Assembly: GCA_965202985.1 (NCBI GenBank) | Contig: CBDBCF010000001.1 | Span: 1,152,001-1,216,000, forward strand | Reading direction: 5' to 3' | From: Longimicrobiales bacterium | Lineage (GTDB): Bacteria; Gemmatimonadota; Gemmatimonadetes; Longimicrobiales; Gaopeijiaceae | DNA length: 64,000 nt | In this document: positions 1,504 through 63,831 of the stretch, one piece after another | How positions within the stretch are numbered: position 1 is the stretch's first letter | Layout of the letters: each line of letters begins with the position of its first letter | Made by a program: the position numbers and the translations under genes | Notes under the pieces: model-generated | What the model was told of the DNA's origin: nothing | Databases searched by the model: none | What the model saw: the letters and a program-made list of their open reading frames with translations, nothing else

Positions 1504-2760
1504 TCAGGACGGCCCCAGTTCGAGCAACCGTACAACGCGAACGATCGGGAGGCCGGATTCGTCCCTCTCGACGTACGCCATCAGCCCATCGGGTCCGAAC
1601 GCCGCCGGTATGCGGACGCCGTTTGCGGGCAGCGTGCCCACGTAACGGCCGTCGGCGCCAAAGACGTCGGTTGGTCCGTCGGAACGGCCGTCGCTGGCCG
1701 AACGCGCGACCCAGATGCGGCTCTCCGAGTCGATGGCCATCGCGCTGACGACGGGAATCTGATCCGCAAAGGTCATCCGATCCAATGCGGTCGCCAGGAT
1801 TTGGCGTCCGATCGCTTCACGGATCTCCTGAGACATCCCCGGACCGGTTACGGAAATCTTGCGATTCCGAACGACTTCGGTCTTCCGCTTCCGCTCGGCT
1901 CGTCTTATCTCCGGCGTGACGTCAAAGGGCGGAATCGGCCTCTCCAGCGTTCCTTCGACCACTCCAGAAACCGAGATCAGTTTGACGCGATAGTCCACAG
2001 AATCGACTACGGCAACGCGACCATCGGGCAGGACATCGACAAGCAGCGACGGCGCGAACTCCGGGGGTTCTCGCATTCCGATCTGCAGGCCAACTCCTAG
2101 GTCGCCGTCCGCCTGTGTTTCGTCGCGGCTTGCGTGGTCGGTCGTTTGGGGCATCTCCCAAGCGGTGTAGAGCGTCTGCCGCACGCCGTCCGACGAAAAA
2201 GCGTCTATCGGACGGCCGAGGCCGCCGCCCGACCTTCCCGTCGCAAGTATTCTGCCGTCGGGCAACGCTCGCAGCACGCGACCAAATCCGTTCAACGACC
2301 CGCGACCGCTCGACTCGACTTGAATGCGACCGCTCATCGCTCCGGCCGTATCGAACACCAGAAAGGCCCTGTGTCCCAGGTCCCACGCCAGCAACCGCCC
2401 ATCGTCCGTGGCCACCAGCGAAATCGGCGCTTCCAATTCGGCCGGGCCTTCTCCCGGATGCGGAATCTCGCGACGAAGGCTCCCGTCCGAAGCCACGACG
2501 ACGATCCGCTTCCGACGCGCGTCCAGCAACGCAAGATCACCGGACATGGTGAAGGCCAGCGAGCTGATCCGGCTGAACAACGCCCATTCCTCGCCCGAGG
2601 CACCGCCGCCCGCGACGAAGACTTCCTCTGTCGCGGCCGCTATGGGGACGTCCAAATCAAGCGCCCCTTCGTCCCCGCAAACCGCCAATGCCGCCAATGC
2701 AAAGGAGGCGATCATGACCGATCGCGCGGTTCCCGGCCGGCTATGGCTCGAGCGCTTCAT
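1504..2760 (-). CDS. 6-bladed beta-propeller (NHL/TolB-like) lipoprotein
   Basis: Signal peptide ending LAVC; GEGPAEL motif; C-terminal MAIDSESRIWV..TDVFGADGRYVG blades. Confidence 0.8.
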   Translation of the reverse strand: MKRSSHSRPGTARSVMIASFALAALAVCGDEGALDLDVPIAAATEEVFVAGGGASGEEWALFSRISSLAFTMSGDLALLDARRKRIVVVASDGSLRREIPHPGEGPAELEAPISLVATDDGRLLAWDLGHRAFLVFDTAGAMSGRIQVESSGRGSLNGFGRVLRALPDGRILATGRSGGGLGRPIDAFSSDGVRQTLYTAWEMPQTTDHASRDETQADGDLGVGLQIGMREPPEFAPSLLVDVLPDGRVAVVDSVDYRVKLISVSGVVEGTLERPIPPFDVTPEIRRAERKRKTEVVRNRKISVTGPGMSQEIREAIGRQILATALDRMTFADQIPVVSAMAIDSESRIWVARSASDGRSDGPTDVFGADGRYVGTLPANGVRIPAAFGPDGLMAYVERDESGLPIVRVVRLLELGPS

Positions 2761-2766
2761 TCCCAG

Positions 2767-4104
2767 TCAGTCGAGTGCATCGGCAGACGGCATTGCGAGG
2801 CGCAACAGCCGGACCACATGGACGAAGGGAACGCCGAGACCGTCCGTTTCCACATATGCCATCAGGCCGTCGGGGCCAAATGCCGTTGGAATCCGAATCT
2901 GATCCGGGGCCAACGTGCCCATGTACTGACCGTCGGCGGAAAACACGTCCGTCGGCCCATCGGAGGCACCGCTGTTTCCCGTGCGAGAGACCCAAATCCG
3001 ATCCTCGGAATCCACCCCCATTGCATCTATGACGGGAATCTGCGCGGCGAAGGTCAACTGCCGAAGATTGGTCTCCAGCGTATGACGCAAGGCTGTGTCA
3101 ATGGTCTCCTTGTCGATGCCGGACCCGTAAGCCGTAATCGTGACGCTCTCCTCAGCGTCTCCCGCCGTCAACTCCGCCTCCATTGCATCTCTCACGGCTT
3201 GCTCAACATCAGGCGTGACTTTACGCGGCAGAATTGCTCTTTCCAGTACGTTCTCAACGAGACCGCCAGACGAGAGCAACTTGATGCGATAACCTATGGA
3301 ATCGACCACGGCCACGCGTCCGTCCGACAGGACGTCCACCAACAAGGGCGGGGCAAAATGAGGGCGATCAGTGCCGAAGGAGAACATCCTCGTGTTGTCC
3401 CCCGAAGTCGGGACCTCTTCCATTTTCCGGTCAGTGGCAGACGGCAAGTCCCATGCCATCATTAAAGTGTCTCTTCCATCTCCTAAGGAAAGGACCTCGA
3501 CTGGACGGCCAGCGGCACCAAAACGGAACCCGCCAAATGCCACGATCCGACCGTCCGGCAACGGTCGAAAGGTCTTGCCGCTTAGGTCGGTGAGGCTTGG
3601 CACTTGAATACCGGTAAGACCCGGCAATTGCCGGGTAGATGCCGGTCCGCGATCGACCCGATGCTGCTCCAGAAAGGCACCGTCCAGACCAAATACCAGA
3701 AACGATCTGTGGCCAACATCATAAACCGCCAATCGGCCGTCGTCCATCGCCATGACCGAAGCCGGCGACCGCAATTCACCGGGTCCGTCACCCGCCCGCG
3801 AGAGATCGTGGCTCCGGTTGCCGTCTTGGGCTACGACGACGATGCGCCGCTGAAGGTTGTCCACTACCACCAAGTTTCCCTTGGCGTCGAACACGGCATC
3901 CGTAACCGCCGTGAACGATTCCCATTCCTCGCCTTTGACATCTCCGATGGAGAATACATCTTCAGTTGTTGCTACGATGGGCACATCGTCGGGCAGTTCT
4001 TGTTGGGCTGAGTTCCCGCAACCACCAGCTAAGAATGCGAACAGTGCGCAGATGCAGGTGACCTTACCGATCATCCTTTCCATAATTCTTATCCAGTTGT
4101 CCAT
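2767..4104 (-). CDS. 6-bladed beta-propeller lipoprotein, paralog of 1504-2760
   Basis: Lipobox LAGGC; AGDGPGEL motif; long similar blocks shared with its neighbour (FAPxLLVDVLxDGRVAVVDS, RIPxAFGPDGLMAYVE). Start may be the second Met. Confidence 0.8.
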   Translation of the reverse strand: MDNWIRIMERMIGKVTCICALFAFLAGGCGNSAQQELPDDVPIVATTEDVFSIGDVKGEEWESFTAVTDAVFDAKGNLVVVDNLQRRIVVVAQDGNRSHDLSRAGDGPGELRSPASVMAMDDGRLAVYDVGHRSFLVFGLDGAFLEQHRVDRGPASTRQLPGLTGIQVPSLTDLSGKTFRPLPDGRIVAFGGFRFGAAGRPVEVLSLGDGRDTLMMAWDLPSATDRKMEEVPTSGDNTRMFSFGTDRPHFAPPLLVDVLSDGRVAVVDSIGYRIKLLSSGGLVENVLERAILPRKVTPDVEQAVRDAMEAELTAGDAEESVTITAYGSGIDKETIDTALRHTLETNLRQLTFAAQIPVIDAMGVDSEDRIWVSRTGNSGASDGPTDVFSADGQYMGTLAPDQIRIPTAFGPDGLMAYVETDGLGVPFVHVVRLLRLAMPSADALD

Positions 4105-4175
4105 AATTTCTTCTTATCCAGTTGAACTTCTCCAATGCCGTCATGTTGTGGCATAAGCGTACGCCAAGCCTTCTA

Positions 4176-4490
4176 CTAAGTGCGTTCGCATGCCAGGATG
4201 AGGAGGTCCACAGGGCCTTTATTGGTATGGATGGTCAGCACGCCGATTATCTCACATGTCCACGTTTCCTCTTCTGGTTCGTTATTGACGCACGTGGCGT
4301 CACACTTCTCCTCGTGCTCCTGCGCAGGGACATGTTGGGCCGGAGTAGCCAGAGCTGCCGACATGACCAAGGCGATCCACAACCGCCACGCCTTCACGCC
4401 TCGGACGGCTGCTGGCTTCGCGGCAACTCCGCCGATCGGAACGGCGATGGACGCGGCAAACTGGAACAACGACGAGATTAGGAACCTCAT
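4176..4490 (-). CDS. Small secreted cysteine-containing peptide (104 aa precursor)
   Basis: AGGAGG RBS 5 nt before ATG; hydrophobic signal ending VPA|Q; mature region of about 48 aa with 4 Cys; co-oriented upstream of the propellers. Confidence 0.65.
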   Translation of the reverse strand: MRFLISSLFQFAASIAVPIGGVAAKPAAVRGVKAWRLWIALVMSAALATPAQHVPAQEHEEKCDATCVNNEPEEETWTCEIIGVLTIHTNKGPVDLLILACERT

Positions 4491-4534
4491 GGGAACCTCC
4501 TGGCTGGGTTGGCACGATTTGCGGGATGCACTGA

Positions 4535-4563
4535 AGGTTGGCGACCTCGCGATCGAATGTCAA
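4535..4563 (-). promoter_or_regulatory. Putative sigma70 promoter for the peptide-propeller operon
   Basis: TTGACA-N17-CAACCT on the minus strand, about 45 nt before the ATG at 4490. Confidence 0.4.
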
Positions 4564-4584: not shown

Positions 4585-5883
4585 TCAACGGGCTCGCCTC
4601 CGTTCGCCCCAGCTCACCGCCCGGCCAGCCACGGTTGGCCGCGATTCTCGCTCCAGGGCCCTCGCGATCAGCGTCCGCCCGTCGTCGGATTGGGGGCGGA
4701 AGCCCAGCAGCCGCAAGACGCCCAGGGCGCCCCAGCGGGCGACGCGACGGTCCGCAACTACGACGCCGGGGCGATCGGGGCGGCGACAAACGCCCGGCAA
4801 CCAGTGGGCGACCCGTCCGACCTTGAGCCGACGCAGCACGCCGGACAGCCGCAGCCAGAAGAGGGGGAACTCCCGCACCACGAAGAAGCCGTCTTCGCCT
4901 TGCTCCTGGTAGAGCGGCATGAGGACGCGGCCCGTCTCCGGGGCGGACACGCGGCCATTGCGGTCGTCGCCCAGCACATCGCCGGCGCGAAGAGGCTGGA
5001 AGTTGAGCAAGCCGGGGCGGCTGCAGTAGCGGTCGTCGTCGGCAACGGGATGGCGGTACTTTACTTCCAGTGCGCGGGGCAGGCCGCGGTAGGCGCTGCG
5101 CAACGCCCGAAAGCCCCGGCGGGCCTCGGGCGCGTTCGCATCGGTCAGCAGCCCGGCCGCTCGGATCGCCAGCCACGTTGCCCACGCCGCCCGCTCGCGA
5201 GATGCCGCCTCCTCGTGCTGACCGCACTCGAAGACGGCGGTCGTGTAGCCGAAGCCGTCCAGGTAGCCGATCAGCGTGCCCTCGACCGCTTCGTCCAGAC
5301 CGAGCACCAGCGGCGCCGGGATCTCCATGGCGAAGCGGCGGTTGTCCAGGAAGTCGGAGGTCGTGGTGAAGGCGCCGCCGCCACCAGACGTGGTGTGCAG
5401 GTCCAGCACATGGACGGGCCCGCGACGGCGCTCCGCGACCTGGGCCAGCACGTCCAACAGGCGGGTGATCTCGCGGCCCTCCCCCTCGTCGGCGTCGGCG
5501 CCGCTGGGCGAGACCGCGGCCGAGACCGCCGTTGCGTCGCCGCGCCCGCGCGCCGCCAAGCGTTCTTCCGTCCACGCCCGGTTCAGGTCGTAGGCCACGA
5601 ACCGCCGGCCCGCCGCCAGCGCTCCCAAGTTGCCCGCCACGGCCACGAAGTCGCCCGTCATGCGATCCCTGCGCGCATGCAACCCGCGCGTCACCGCTTC
5701 CAGCGCATGCACGCCGGCGGGCTCGTTCCCGTGAAGTCCGCCCACGCACAGCAACAAGGGGCCCGCCGAAGCTCCGGCGATCCAGGCCACGCGGCCCTGG
5801 GCCAGCCCCGCGTTCCGGGCGGCCGGCCCCTCGTCCGATGTCGCTCGGGCGCGCTTCGCCAGCGCCGGGCTACCCACGACCAC
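4585..5883 (-). CDS. Succinylglutamate desuccinylase/aspartoacylase (AstE/AspA, M14) family Zn hydrolase
   Basis: GGLHGNEPAG, DLNR, VLDLHTTS and FECGQH motifs. Confidence 0.9.
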   Translation of the reverse strand: MVVGSPALAKRARATSDEGPAARNAGLAQGRVAWIAGASAGPLLLCVGGLHGNEPAGVHALEAVTRGLHARRDRMTGDFVAVAGNLGALAAGRRFVAYDLNRAWTEERLAARGRGDATAVSAAVSPSGADADEGEGREITRLLDVLAQVAERRRGPVHVLDLHTTSGGGGAFTTTSDFLDNRRFAMEIPAPLVLGLDEAVEGTLIGYLDGFGYTTAVFECGQHEEAASRERAAWATWLAIRAAGLLTDANAPEARRGFRALRSAYRGLPRALEVKYRHPVADDDRYCSRPGLLNFQPLRAGDVLGDDRNGRVSAPETGRVLMPLYQEQGEDGFFVVREFPLFWLRLSGVLRRLKVGRVAHWLPGVCRRPDRPGVVVADRRVARWGALGVLRLLGFRPQSDDGRTLIARALERESRPTVAGRAVSWGERRRAR

Positions 5884-9695: not shown

Positions 9696-10519
<824 letters not shown>

Positions 10520-10612
10520 GAAGGGGAACCGGCCAACGCGAAGACGGCCCCAGGGCGTAAACGATTCCAAGAGTGCGGCGGCGGGTCAAGGGGGGGAGCG
10601 TCGGGCGGCGTC

Positions 10613-10990
<378 letters not shown>

Positions 10991-14003: not shown

Positions 14004-15929
14004 ATGGCCCGATACTTGACCGAAGGCACCGGCGCCTTCTTCCTCGTCCTTACGGTCTGCCTGACGGCCGTGCAGCAGGTCCCCCTGGCCCCTCTGGCCG
14101 TGGGTTCGGTGCTCATGATCATGGTGTACATGGGCGCCCACGTCTCCGGCGCGCACTACAACCCGGTCGTGAGCGCGGCCCTGGCCCGAGCCGGAAAGCT
14201 GGGCCGGAAGGAGGCGGGACGCTACGCGGCGGCGCAAGTTGCGGGGGCGCTGCTGGCCGGCCTCGCGGCGCGTTTTCTCACCGGCACGGCCTTCGTCCCG
14301 GGGCCGGGCGACGGGGTGTCGGTGCCGGCGGCGCTGCTGGCCGAGGCGCTGTTCGCGTTCGGCTTGGTGCTGGTGGTGCTCAACGTGGCCGCGGACCGTC
14401 GCACCGAGGGAAACTCGTACTTCGGGCTCGCGATCGGCTTCACGGTGATGGTTGCGGGCTTCGCCGTCGGCGACATCTCGGGAGGCGTGCTCAATCCGGC
14501 CGTGGCAGCGGGGACGTCGATCGCCAGCCTGCTGACCGGCGGACCCAGCGGGGGCCTTGGGAACATGTTCCTGTACTGGGTGGGTCCGGCGCTCGGCGCA
14601 TTTCTGGCCCTGGGGGTCTTCCGGGTGCAGAGCGAAGGCGGCCCGCCGGGCCGGAACCAAGTCGGGACGACAGAGGCTTCCGAGGCTGGACATGGAGACG
14701 ACATCGGATTGAAGATGGCAGGATTGGGTTTGGTTCTGGTCTTGCTGGCCGGTTGCGACGACCGACAGGCGAACGAACCGGCCCCGACGGCGGACGAAGA
14801 TTCGGCCGGGAGCGTCGGATCAGCGTTGGTGCAGGCTCGCCCGGACGCCACGTTTCGAGCCGACGATGAACCGACGCTCTCCATCGGCCTTGCCCAGGGG
14901 CCGGACGAGTACCTGTTCAGAGGCGTCACGGCCGCCCGGCTGTCGGACGGAGGCGTCGTCGCGGCAGTCGAAGGAATGGACGAGGTGCGGCGCTTTGGTC
15001 CCGACGGCCGTCACCTCTGGACCTCGGGGCGCGAGGGAGAGGGCCCCGGAGAGTTCGGCGGGGTCCGACTGCTCGCCGGATGCACCAGTGCCCAGTCCAT
15101 CGTCGCCTACGACTATCGCAACGACCGCGTGACGATCCTGGACGGGAAAGGGGAGCCGATCCAGAACGCCCGGACCCTATGGAGCGGCCACCCCGTCTAC
15201 GAGATCAGGTGTTCGGCCGACCAGCGCTTCGTGGTGTCGAACATGAGCGAGGATCCACCGAATTCGGGACCGAACCGCTCGGACAATTCCTTAGGCTTTG
15301 CCGCAATCACGGAGTCCGACTTTCCAGTGGAGCTGTTGCGGGCGGCGATTCCGGGCGCGGAGCGGGTTCAGGTCGTCCTGGGCGCCGACCAGTCCGTGAG
15401 TTTTCCCCGGACCTGGGGCAAGGACCTCGAGTTCGTGGCGACCGACGAAGGCGTCTGGCTGGGCACTGGCGACAGCTACGAACTGGAGCTTCTCGATTGG
15501 AGCGGCGCGACGGTTCGGCGGATCCGCTGGAACGGCCCGGATTTGGCCGTCACGGACGAGCACGTGGAGGCCCATCGCGACCAGATGCGGCGGCAGTACT
15601 CCGAATCGTCGACCGAGGACTGGGAGACAAGGTTCAACAACCGATGGGACGAAGAGGCCAAGTACCTGCCGTCCACCTTTCCGTCGTTCTCGCGCGTGCT
15701 CTTGTCGGACGACGGCAACCTGTGGGTCGAGCACTTCCACCGCCCGGGCGCCGAGCGTCGAGAATGGGTCGTCTTCGCGCCGACCGGCGAGTGGCTGCGC
15801 ACCGTGGAGCTGCCGGCGCGAGTGGTCGTCCAAGACGCCGGCGCCGACTGGGTTCTTGCGCGGACGACCGACGAGCTGGGCGTCGAGCGGATCGAGTTGT
15901 ACGCACTCCGCGACGGATCGGCGACCTAG
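14004..15929 (+). CDS. MIP/aquaporin channel (about 14004-14640) read in frame into a beta-propeller lipoprotein
   Basis: HVSGAHYNPV and ISGGVLNPAV loops with 6 TM segments; no stop codon before the propeller. Confidence 0.75.
   Translation: MARYLTEGTGAFFLVLTVCLTAVQQVPLAPLAVGSVLMIMVYMGAHVSGAHYNPVVSAALARAGKLGRKEAGRYAAAQVAGALLAGLAARFLTGTAFVPGPGDGVSVPAALLAEALFAFGLVLVVLNVAADRRTEGNSYFGLAIGFTVMVAGFAVGDISGGVLNPAVAAGTSIASLLTGGPSGGLGNMFLYWVGPALGAFLALGVFRVQSEGGPPGRNQVGTTEASEAGHGDDIGLKMAGLGLVLVLLAGCDDRQANEPAPTADEDSAGSVGSALVQARPDATFRADDEPTLSIGLAQGPDEYLFRGVTAARLSDGGVVAAVEGMDEVRRFGPDGRHLWTSGREGEGPGEFGGVRLLAGCTSAQSIVAYDYRNDRVTILDGKGEPIQNARTLWSGHPVYEIRCSADQRFVVSNMSEDPPNSGPNRSDNSLGFAAITESDFPVELLRAAIPGAERVQVVLGADQSVSFPRTWGKDLEFVATDEGVWLGTGDSYELELLDWSGATVRRIRWNGPDLAVTDEHVEAHRDQMRRQYSESSTEDWETRFNNRWDEEAKYLPSTFPSFSRVLLSDDGNLWVEHFHRPGAERREWVVFAPTGEWLRTVELPARVVVQDAGADWVLARTTDELGVERIELYALRDGSAT
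14709..15929 (+). CDS. 6-bladed beta-propeller lipoprotein (probable independent internal start)
   Basis: GGAG at 14694, TTG at 14709 / ATG at 14715, lipobox LLAGC, GREGEGPGEF motif, LSDDGNLWV..WVVFAPTGEW. Confidence 0.75.
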   Translation: MKMAGLGLVLVLLAGCDDRQANEPAPTADEDSAGSVGSALVQARPDATFRADDEPTLSIGLAQGPDEYLFRGVTAARLSDGGVVAAVEGMDEVRRFGPDGRHLWTSGREGEGPGEFGGVRLLAGCTSAQSIVAYDYRNDRVTILDGKGEPIQNARTLWSGHPVYEIRCSADQRFVVSNMSEDPPNSGPNRSDNSLGFAAITESDFPVELLRAAIPGAERVQVVLGADQSVSFPRTWGKDLEFVATDEGVWLGTGDSYELELLDWSGATVRRIRWNGPDLAVTDEHVEAHRDQMRRQYSESSTEDWETRFNNRWDEEAKYLPSTFPSFSRVLLSDDGNLWVEHFHRPGAERREWVVFAPTGEWLRTVELPARVVVQDAGADWVLARTTDELGVERIELYALRDGSAT

Positions 15930-61290: not shown

Positions 61291-62330
61291 TCCTGGGCGG
61301 CACCGGCTTCATCGGTCCCCACATGGTGGAGTACGCCCAGGCCCGAGGCCACGAAGTCACCCTCTTCAACCGGGGTCGCACCAACACGCACCTGTTCCCG
61401 GAGCTGGAGAAGCTGGTCGGCGACCGCGCGTCGGACTTGACGGCCTTGGAGGGCCGCCGGTGGGACGCCGTGATCGACAACTCGGGGTACATCGAGCGCC
61501 ACTGCCGGAGTTCGGCGGAGGTCCTGTCCGACTCGGGGCGCTACGTGTTCATCTCGACGCTCTCCGCGTACAAGGACCTGGCCACGCCGGGGATCACGGA
61601 GGACTACGAGCTGGCCCGGCTGCCCGACCCCGCCATGGCCGAATCCGACGAGCGGACGGGGCAGACCTACGGCCCCTTCAAGGCGCTGTGCGAAGAGGCG
61701 GTCCAGGCGGTGTTCGGCGAGCGCGCCACGATCGTGCGGCCCGGCTACATCGTCGGACCTCGCGACGGCACGGACCGCTGGACCTACTGGCCGGTGCGGG
61801 CGGCGGCAGGCGGGACGATGGCCGTGCCCGGTTCGCCCGAGGACGCCGTGCAGTTCATCGACGCCAGGGACCTGGGCGCGTGGGTGGTCCGCATGGTTGA
61901 GAACGACGCGAGCGGAGAGTTCAACGCCGTGGGACCCGTCGAGCCCGTCAGCATGGCCTCCATGCTGGAGGCGTGTCGGAGCGTCAGCGGGAGCGACGCC
62001 GAGTTCCAGTGGGTGGACGCGGAGTTCGCGCGCGACCAGGGCGTGGTGTTCCCGATCTGGGCGCCGCCGGGCGAGGGCGACTTCGGCGCCGTGCACCGCG
62101 TCGACAACGCGCGAGCCGTGGAAGCCGGCTACACCAGCCGGCCGATCGAGGAGACGATCCGGGACACGCTGGCTTGGTGGAACGAGATCGCGCCCGACGA
62201 ACGGGCGGACGGGATGCGCTCCGGGTTGCGGAAGCCGCCGGAGCTGGCGTTCAGGGAGCCGGCGACGATGGAAGCCATGATGGAGGTCGAGGCCGCGCTG
62301 CTGGAGGCGTGGTCGGCCCGAAACAGCTAG
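61278..62330 (+). CDS. NAD-dependent epimerase/dehydratase (atypical SDR, isoflavone reductase-like)
   Basis: ILILGGTGFIG, FNRGRT, YGPFKALCE and RPGYIVGP motifs. Confidence 0.9.
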   Translation: MSILILGGTGFIGPHMVEYAQARGHEVTLFNRGRTNTHLFPELEKLVGDRASDLTALEGRRWDAVIDNSGYIERHCRSSAEVLSDSGRYVFISTLSAYKDLATPGITEDYELARLPDPAMAESDERTGQTYGPFKALCEEAVQAVFGERATIVRPGYIVGPRDGTDRWTYWPVRAAAGGTMAVPGSPEDAVQFIDARDLGAWVVRMVENDASGEFNAVGPVEPVSMASMLEACRSVSGSDAEFQWVDAEFARDQGVVFPIWAPPGEGDFGAVHRVDNARAVEAGYTSRPIEETIRDTLAWWNEIAPDERADGMRSGLRKPPELAFREPATMEAMMEVEAALLEAWSARNS

Positions 62331-62446
62331 CAGGCCGGCCCAAGAAGTCTTCCTGGCCACAAGATTCCCTGGCAACATCGGCGATCCTCGGGGCTACGGA
62401 ATACGGTTGCAGCGGGCGGGAAGCCTCGTCGTTTCATCGAAAACGA

Positions 62447-62598
62447 CGCATTTTGCTACCATCGAGTGTCGCATATTGCACGTTTCTATCGTGACAAACT
62501 GCGCAGGCCGAGGGGTCCACGTGTCTTATAAGTCTTTGTCTGACAATATCTTATGGACTTGTGGTGGCATCATTCGAAACAGTGGCACGGAATTTGCT
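62447..62598 (+). promoter_or_regulatory. sigma54 promoter with IHF-like site and upstream enhancer-like repeats
   Basis: TGGCAC-GGAAT-TTGCT at 62583-62598; TAAGTCTTTG-N5-CAATATCTTA at 62529-62553; CGCATwTTGC at 62447 and 62470. Confidence 0.7.
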
Positions 62599-62661
62599 GT
62601 GGTTATCGACAACCTTGCCCCCCATCAAGCCTCCAAAAGACATCCAGCACAAAGGCCGGAC

Positions 62662-63831
62662 ATGACCCTGCCACAAGATCTGCTCGAATCTCCCTCGGCC
62701 CATTCGCACCATACCAAACTTGAAGGCTGTTGGCCGCTGTTCTTGCTCATCGGACTAGTTGCGGGGTGCTCGGAACCCAGATCGGCACACCAACGCGCCA
62801 TCCCAATCACTCTGCCTGTGGGCGAGCCGGAGTTGGTCGTCACGATTCTGGACACCCTACGTACGGGAGACGGCGCCGTTCTAGCCGATCCGATCGGCAT
62901 CTTCGAAGACCGCCTTGGACGATACATAGCTGTTGATCGCTCCGACAAGGACATTAAGGTTTATGGCGACGATGGAGAGTTTACAAGTACGGTAGGGAGG
63001 CCGGGATCGGGCCCAGGAGAATTTGAAGTGCTTTGGGGTGGAGGCGTCACGCGAGGTGACTCTGTCTTCGGATATGACTTCGCAGATTTATCTGTCGAGA
63101 TGTTCGACGCCAATGGAACCGTAGGGCGAACATTCTCGATCGGCGACGGTTTCTTGGTACCTTCATCTGTTGCTTCGTTTGGCCACAACGCCTTGCTCGT
63201 ATCATACTTTCCGCTTGGAGCGACGGCCGACAACCTGCTTCACGTTGTAGACTTGCACTCCCATGCCGGCCCCCGCTTTGCGAATTTTGCTCATTACCTG
63301 GAAGGAGCTCCCCCCGCCGTTCTGCAGGAGTCCATTGTTCATGCTGACGCCCACGACGGCCTAGTTGTGGTAGGCATGCGTGGTTATGATTCCATCGCCG
63401 CATACACTGATAATGGCAAACGCATTGCTGCCGTGCGGTTGCCCGACGACTTGGTTGCATCCACTTACCGCCGAGCAATTGAATCTAGGGGTGGTGACGC
63501 TCAACGTGCTGACGGTACATTTGTAACCGACAGCATAGAAGCCGTTACGAGCATCTTGGTAATCGACGGGTCAACTGCTCTGGTGCAGATCGCATCCGTA
63601 GATGCCATTAGCCCTCTTGTTGACCTTACCGCAGGAGGAAGCTATTTAGTAGTGCTCGTTGATCAAGCTGCTCAGGTAATGCGTGTAGTATCAATCGGTC
63701 GAAAGAGCTGGGGATTGATCGGAAGACATCAGTCTGGCGATGCTTTGCTGGCCAGGTATGTCGGGGCGCTGTACGATGCCGTCGAGATCGCCTCGGCACG
63801 TGTGCACTATCGGATGGCGACCAATGAATGA
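62662..63831 (+). CDS. 6-bladed beta-propeller lipoprotein (low GC)
   Basis: Lipobox LVAGC; YIAVDRSDKDIKVY and GRPGSGPGEF motifs; visibly lower GC than the flanking DNA. Confidence 0.78.
   Translation: MTLPQDLLESPSAHSHHTKLEGCWPLFLLIGLVAGCSEPRSAHQRAIPITLPVGEPELVVTILDTLRTGDGAVLADPIGIFEDRLGRYIAVDRSDKDIKVYGDDGEFTSTVGRPGSGPGEFEVLWGGGVTRGDSVFGYDFADLSVEMFDANGTVGRTFSIGDGFLVPSSVASFGHNALLVSYFPLGATADNLLHVVDLHSHAGPRFANFAHYLEGAPPAVLQESIVHADAHDGLVVVGMRGYDSIAAYTDNGKRIAAVRLPDDLVASTYRRAIESRGGDAQRADGTFVTDSIEAVTSILVIDGSTALVQIASVDAISPLVDLTAGGSYLVVLVDQAAQVMRVVSIGRKSWGLIGRHQSGDALLARYVGALYDAVEIASARVHYRMATNE

Follow-up and report, generated by a model that had tools for sequence, protein, structure and literature searches.

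A four-cysteine mini-protein gene and its adjoining beta-propeller gene in a Longimicrobiales genome: a predicted binding pair of toxin/immunity-like layout

What is the role of a small, apparently exported cysteine-bearing peptide encoded at the head of two tandem beta-propeller genes? The question is raised by a 64,000-nt stretch of a Longimicrobiales (Gemmatimonadota) genome (the window; coordinates count along its whole length), in which three minus-strand open reading frames (ORFs) follow one another: a 104-residue ORF with four cysteines (P0001, the peptide gene), propeller 1 after a gap of 71 nt (P0002, 445 residues) and propeller 2 after a further 6 nt (P0003, 418 residues; Table 1). 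This arrangement is as a sequence-only reading had described it, which proposed that a disulfide-bonded peptide is bound, matured or neutralized by its cognate propellers. Comparison of the source genome (G000) with other genomes (other G labels) and with sequencing runs (X labels), together with structure prediction, indicates that peptide and propeller form a genuine cassette, that propeller 1 probably binds the peptide and, tentatively, that the two act as a polymorphic toxin/immunity-like pair separating self from non-self.

The peptide gene is real and under purifying selection. Its homologues in G113 and G400, the single pair on which these ratios rest, differ with nonsynonymous (dN) and synonymous (dS) rates of 0.198 and 0.789 over 79 codons (dN/dS 0.25), about the same as their propellers (dN 0.206, dS 0.764 over 423 codons). 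All homologues share an A|Q junction, the motif CDATCV and two later cysteines. The A|Q junction and the acidic mature part claimed earlier were both recovered, with A56-Q57 invariant in 7/7 homologues and 11 D/E against 3 K/R from Q57 onwards. By inspection, the method used here for all signal-peptide and lipobox assignments, the leader likely carries a Sec signal cleaved at A56|Q57. It is unusually long at 56 residues, and its first 27–31 codons may be dispensable, because the G113 and G400 homologues begin about 29 residues ahead of the glutamine. The AlphaFold monomer model confidently places a hairpin between the third and fourth cysteines (block predicted local distance difference test, pLDDT, 92–97; AlphaFold2 strands at 21–33 and 36–47 of the mature chain) and leaves the N-terminus loose, at low pLDDT. 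Disulfides likely form within the CDATC loop and close the C79–C101 hairpin, which is hydrophobic across the family (grand average of hydropathy, GRAVY, 0.6–1.4).

The family is small. A large protein search returned three close clusters and a profile search one remote member (P0099), while a seven-sequence profile matched five of 401 genomes of the order (at most 12 candidates scored per genome); one of the five, in G149, was dropped as spurious, having neither the cysteine motif nor a propeller. No paralogue was found in the source genome and none came from metagenome contig scans or the ESM Atlas; a single-sequence search of 61 genomes gave only chance-level matches outside G000. P0001 had no Pfam match at E<=0.1 and none from NCBIfam or PADLOC, a Strep_pep match below the Pfam cut-off being ignored, and Foldseek returned no structural match for the hairpin model at E<=0.001. 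The expectation that annotation would easily miss the peptide proved wrong: records from four sources contain an identical sequence, with no name attached to the three cluster members inspected. The sequencing runs listed as containing the stretch include no RNA dataset.

Wherever the peptide gene is real (G000, G259, G113 and G400), a propeller gene directly follows it (4/4), being 35–44% identical to P0002 in the latter three and 100% in G000, with stop and start codons overlapping in G113 and G400. A scan of related genomes, proposed with the sequence-only reading, finds homologous loci carrying the peptide in G259, G113 and G400, and the reading is not refuted on this count. Across the source genome, 70 candidate ORFs passed a filter for a signal-like sequence and four or more cysteines, and 15 of them end between −100 and 600 nt from a propeller (0.63 expected). 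A cysteine-rich ORF lies upstream of 14/99 propeller ORFs vs 10/1663 other genes (p=1.5e-12), and 24 of the 30 candidates with a Shine–Dalgarno site and ATG are at most 3 kb from a propeller, as is 12.8% of the genome. The peptide-plus-propeller cassette is not a product of chance. No other cysteine-rich candidate in the genome is homologous to P0001, and none of those scanned exceeded a Pfam or NCBIfam cut-off. Propellers also occur alone: 56/70 clusters have no upstream candidate, and arrays reach five ORF hits. A peptide homologue accompanies 1/38 Gemmatimonadota loci of close P0002 relatives (nine weak loci from other phyla were left out) and 0/15 further propeller loci from other genomes, a scarcity that the sequence-only reading did not foresee. 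These orphan counts are upper bounds, because the ORF filter overlooked the TTG-start peptide of G259, which was spotted by eye.

The two propellers are paralogues, as had been claimed (45–48% identity). P0002 passes the cut-off of PF17170 (DUF5128; 28 vs 22.9 bits) over residues 71–156 only; P0003 has no Pfam propeller match above cut-off and scores 1.6e-71 on a genome-derived propeller profile. The AlphaFold2 model of P0002 (pLDDT 88.8) is a six-bladed NHL-type propeller, the blade count being read from its strand list, with three loops inserted between blades. Both proteins are likely lipoproteins, with conserved cysteines (Cys29 in P0002, Cys28 in P0003) after hydrophobic stretches and lipoboxes that depart from the textbook consensus. 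The best fold matches of P0002 are NHL domains (Brat, TRIM71, Mei-P26; NHLRC2/SOQ1; for 1q7f, Z 21.1, root-mean-square deviation (rmsd) 3.8, 261 residues aligned), which differ in being eukaryotic, in leaving about 150 model residues unaligned and in a fused thioredoxin that P0002 lacks. Two Bacteroides structural-genomics proteins of the DUF5128/DUF4221 propeller type come next, BVU_1028 (PDB 3s9j; Z 19.1, rmsd 4.0, 308 aligned) and BF0058 (PDB 4raa; Z 17.2, rmsd 4.3, 287 aligned), from another phylum and only 8–11% identical to P0002; PAL also matches, at Z 16.1, below the NHL domains. A 231-residue protein on record (P0101), from a contig equal in size to this one, may mean that propeller 1 was cut short in public gene calls.

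Named homologues come from Gemmatimonadota. In this lineage six-bladed propeller lipoproteins make up a very numerous, functionally uncharacterized group, with 99 ORF hits in 70 clusters in the source genome (fragments and overlapping frames counted) and 30–67 profile matches per genome in 4/4 genomes of the genus. This expansion, the NHL fold and the presence of the DNA in sponge metagenomes (runs X3, X4 and X6 cover 30/30 bins of the stretch, X8 18/30) would suit propellers that bind host or foreign beta-strand peptides, the encoded peptide serving as a plug, decoy or displayed effector for the sponge. Such a host-directed role is improbable, given that related propellers are common across Gemmatimonadota and that NHL is not mentioned in the available part of PMC8163846.

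Structure prediction points to the binding partner. The mature 48-mer and P0002 gave a complex score of 0.79 against 0.01 for the best of three controls (0.00–0.01), these being unrelated proteins and not paralogous propellers; the mark is one that 116/157 solved pairs attain, as against 2/215 mismatched pairs, a calibration only roughly applicable here (own alignments). At least 87% of contacts recur between runs, and partner pLDDT is at least 62 (62–64). The predicted contacts join residues 21–46 of the peptide, the hairpin, mainly to two arms of P0002 (residues 237–251 and 321–346); judging by the closest residue pairs, the two hairpin strands probably each run beside a strand of one arm. 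The interface does not include the CDATC loop. Cognate binding by propeller 1 is considered probable, and the model supports it short of demonstration. The earlier phrase 'the cognate propellers' is supported in the singular only: the prediction covered propeller 1, and propeller 2 shares 7/45 predicted interface residues and is a candidate orphan of other specificity. Hairpins pair easily in models, and the modest partner pLDDT together with the unrelated controls would also fit conserved adjacency without interaction, the complex merely reflecting generic strand pairing by a sticky hairpin. This is very improbable, as all three controls scored near zero and the interface, predicted blind, falls on a peptide segment that is naturally swapped and on those propeller residues that diverge most.

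That segment is seen in the allele P0006, nearly identical to P0001 up to C79 and replaced after it, so that a constant N-terminus carries a swapped hairpin. Its probable partner, the propeller P0010, keeps 19/45 interface residues vs 276/356 others and 120/171 in other coil (p=8e-4); 11 close propeller alleles (fragment P0102 left out) keep 0.84–0.96 of them. Same-size contigs (76431, 50522 and 347504) are each common to a P0010-type and a P0002-type propeller, that of 76431 also to P0006, and P0099 and P0116 are both on contigs sized 5392; these co-locations are inferred from equal contig sizes only. Over six pairs, peptide and propeller divergence are correlated (rho 0.7, Mantel p 0.008–0.018).

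In G259 and X6, the peptide gene appears to be in decay while the propeller next to it is intact. The long leader of the G259 gene contains a TAG, which would make it either a broken gene or one with a later TTG start. Run X6 has an 11-nt deletion at 4490, the peptide start codon, which would remove the ATG. Insertion-like ends also occur between the two genes in both X3 and X6, possibly from insertion sequences. At another locus (L086), two propellers stand without a peptide, one of them a frameshifted homologue of P0002 (56%).

On its gene content, the site of the cassette is a defence hotspot. The locus is neighboured by AstE-like, GCS2-CBS and PDC-M38 genes; downstream of the AstE-like gene lies PDC-M38 here, and a plug-domain protein with BREX genes in G002 and G003. 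The same site in G001 holds an unrelated cassette on the opposite strand (L055:3562-8590), comprising a six-cysteine peptide, a propeller, two ORFs with CxxS motifs and an extracytoplasmic function (ECF) sigma factor.

A toxin/immunity-like function is ranked first because the locus is laid out like polymorphic systems, with a ligand that is part constant and part variable, a binder encoded next to it, numerous orphans and a defence hotspot; it is a possibility that falls somewhat short of probable. The likely exported mini-protein, cleaved at A56|Q57 and likely closed by the C79–C101 disulfide, would pair edge-on with the two arms of propeller 1 in one sheet packed on a helix. A free hairpin, acidic and hydrophobic, might damage the envelope of a competitor by adding a strand to one of its envelope proteins, by inserting into the membrane or by aggregating, and the propeller would neutralize it by sequestration. 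Replacement of the hairpin would bring in a new cognate propeller while old propellers persist as orphans; propeller 2 and the tandem arrays would be accounted for in this way. Described systems share this layout: in the available parts of the sources, Rhs CT/RhsI pairs combine a constant N-terminus and an exchangeable C-terminal part with a partner directly downstream and orphan partners (PMC10539506), and rAID arrays have the same polymorphic toxin/immunity plan with orphan immunity (PMC12247911). The constant N-terminus, swapped C-terminal hairpin, downstream propeller, orphans and predicted-interface variation are the points of likeness here; unlike Rhs or rAID, the element is a 48-residue Sec-type hairpin with no enzyme domain, no type VI secretion sheath found and no homology to either.

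Several observations weigh against this function. A net charge of −4 to −12 makes the mature chain acidic, whereas typical hairpin antimicrobials are cationic. No dedicated exporter lies at the locus and no type VI secretion sheath (VipB) match was found in the 92% complete genome, which has one secretin, none at the locus. The mini-protein matches no known family or fold in Pfam, NCBIfam or structure searches. The hairpin has a dN/dS of 0.38 in the one testable pair (G113/G400), so no positive selection is seen, and the propeller interface of that pair differs little from the rest (26/45 vs 248/356). Non-interface residues of the same inserts vary too (43/77 in P0010), the interface divergence of P0011 is not significant (p=0.24), and the six-pair correlation rests on kin and on two pairings by equal contig size. 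The insertion-like ends in X3 come without a listed loss of the start codon, a risky configuration if the propeller is essential immunity. Other cassettes adjoin ECF sigma factors and thioredoxin-like genes, which fits rival functions.

The acidic chain and the failure of the searches to find a delivery route leave room for chaperone and signalling functions. In the former, the propeller would hold a sticky hairpin through oxidative folding and export, and deliver or display a structural or adhesive product. The same predicted complex fits, the hydrophobic hairpins are likely to aggregate, stop/start overlap suggests matched amounts of peptide and propeller, and the genome encodes VKOR and, at another cassette, a DsbA-like gene. 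A client-specific chaperone should nevertheless vanish with its client, yet 56/70 clusters and 37/38 close loci lack a peptide by these scans, and no redoxin occurs at the locus or in the G113, G400 and G259 flanks (rough ORF lists, selected ORFs scanned); a dedicated maturation or display role is on balance somewhat unlikely. A strain-specific signal and receptor is unlikely to a greater degree: the peptide would be a pheromone whose periplasmic propeller relays to an ECF/anti-sigma or AraC regulator, with orphans eavesdropping. ECF sigma matches occur in 9/20 fetched regions and AraC matches in three (selected ORFs; regions picked for candidate peptides), and pherotype systems, in which ligand and binder co-vary, offer a parallel. 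The propeller model, however, has no transmembrane or output domain, and no ECF gene lies at the locus or was found next to its counterparts in G113, G400 and G259; upstream in G400 there is a LuxR-type gene.

The toxin/immunity-like function may be extended to a genome-scale lock-and-key system of Gemmatimonadota that differs from those described so far, in which dozens of propeller lipoproteins with hypervariable strand-capturing arms would each match an unrelated disulfide mini-protein, forming a new class of beta-hairpin bacteriocins and an adaptive library of orphan decoy receptors. This extension is rather doubtful; if true, it would also explain the uncharacterized DUF5128/NVEALA loci of Bacteroidota. 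A toxin/immunity pair would in itself imply that sponge symbionts encode a reservoir of disulfide mini-proteins missing from annotation, and would provide a natural scaffold for binding hairpins; the locus offers a cheap, concrete test through its synthesizable 48-mer, predicted interface and natural allele pairs.

Known small cysteine-containing partners were considered in turn. NVEALA is a small cysteine protein encoded upstream of a propeller, and the sequence-only reading had drawn this parallel; the peptide is not a member of PF14055, with no profile match and no NVEALA motif, and the likeness stands as an analogy only. A genome-wide PF14055 search was blank, as was its positive control. 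In methylamine dehydrogenase, a small disulfide-rich subunit (MauA) binds a propeller subunit (MauB), and its tryptophan tryptophylquinone cofactor needs two tryptophans. Identity as the small subunit of such an amine dehydrogenase was rejected, the mature peptide having one tryptophan, not conserved, and no MauD, MauE or MauG being seen at the locus. Bacteroidetocins (class IIf), as described in the available part of PMC6671954, are four-cysteine, 42-residue peptides of a Gram-negative bacterium with a double-glycine leader, an ABC peptidase-transporter, a protein with five transmembrane segments and a thiol oxidoreductase, and with no immunity gene found; that part never mentions a propeller. 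A bacteroidetocin or other class II bacteriocin is ruled out by the A|Q junction, and no double-glycine leader, C39 ABC transporter, protein with five transmembrane segments or oxidoreductase occurs in the neighbourhood. The searched literature (few subscription journals, supplements excluded) holds no description of a peptide–propeller module, NVEALA or DUF5128, and PMC12204202 and PMC8163846 proved unrelated. The CDATC-hairpin family, the predicted two-arm clamp and the natural hairpin swap are new.

Expression signals agree in part with the sequence-only reading. The claimed AGGAGG ribosome-binding site (RBS) is present 5 nt ahead of the ATG, and the claimed TTGACA hexamer is present at 4563-4558, as a promoter only plausible and not listed by a consensus scan. 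Eighteen nucleotides on, its weak partner hexamer AACCTT resembles TAGCTT and TACCTT, among the commonest hexamers at that spacing in this genome (5 and 4 from 281 TTGAC sites). A second TTGACA, at 4588, overlaps the stop codon of the AstE-like gene; no sigma-54 motif was found upstream of the peptide gene, and a terminator-like site at 1441-1417 was discounted as within chance (3 found vs 5.4 expected). The low GC content reported earlier holds against the upstream flank (0.69–0.73), not against the downstream flank (0.55–0.65), and is not limited to the 5' end of propeller 1: the whole gene is low (GC 0.58; third-position GC 0.65, below the 1st percentile of 2032 genes), with a milder depression in propeller 2 (0.64).

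Table 1. Features of the mini-protein and propeller locus, in window coordinates.
Feature	Position	Strand	Basis
Promoter-like site, TTGACA + 17–18 nt + (C)AACCTT	4534..4563	-	sequence, hexamer statistics; unproven
AGGAGG RBS; 8-nt direct repeat, 11-nt period, flanking ATG	4496..4501	-	sequence
Mini-protein gene P0001, 104 aa, founder of CDATC-hairpin family	4176..4490	-	homologues, dN/dS
Leader, residues 1–56; likely Sec signal in second half	4323..4490	-	invariant A-Q; by inspection
Invariant CDATC motif, C63–C67, likely small disulfide loop	4290..4304	-	alignment, low pLDDT
Variable hydrophobic beta-hairpin C79–C101, predicted binding element	4188..4256	-	AlphaFold2, predicted interface, swap in P0006
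AT-rich spacer, GC 0.44	4105..4175	.	insertion-like loose ends at 4103-4113 in two runs
Propeller 1 (P0002), likely lipoprotein (Cys29), three inserted loops	2767..4104	-	PF17170, AlphaFold2, fold matches
Arm 1 of propeller 1, residues 237–251 (model 209–223)	3352..3396	-	predicted pairing with hairpin strand 2
Arm 2 of propeller 1, residues 321–346 (model 293–318), strand plus helix	3067..3144	-	predicted pairing with hairpin strand 1
Propeller 2 (P0003), paralogous likely lipoprotein (Cys28), different arms	1504..2760	-	profile match, interface comparison

Further features were observed around the cassette and elsewhere in the genome. On the plus strand, 2-933 encodes the end of an AAA ATPase and DUF3226, matching the candidate defence system PDC-M38. 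The adjoining 990-1490 is a remnant or repeat with 75–85% copies at G000:C1:395.7-396.1 kb and C2:264.9-267.0 kb, and is rearranged in several runs. In G259, a tRNA-Val (L139:8466-8540) about 600 nt downstream of the homologous cassette is a possible insertion site. A second low-GC cassette at 62281-63831 (+) encodes a propeller, a membrane-anchored ORF and a signal-bearing peptide with eight cysteines, the peptide lying at G000:C1:1216488 (L033:5488-5694), just beyond the window end. At 14004-15929 (+), an aquaporin-like MIP domain is in frame with a propeller, by fusion or a lost stop, and another propeller follows. A bacteriocin-like cluster, judging by its genes, occurs at L036:6509-9291 (G000:C1:1690509-1693291), with three tandem four-cysteine peptides, a C39 peptidase, a split redoxin and ABC genes, and no propeller. 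At about 10400-10900, spurious ORF translations resemble those that RNase P RNA and a tRNA would give. Near propeller loci, a recurring type of peptide containing three CC pairs (L030:8620, L038:6915, L039:3568, L040:4407 and L048:4400) lies beside genes for ECF sigma factors and for membrane proteins.

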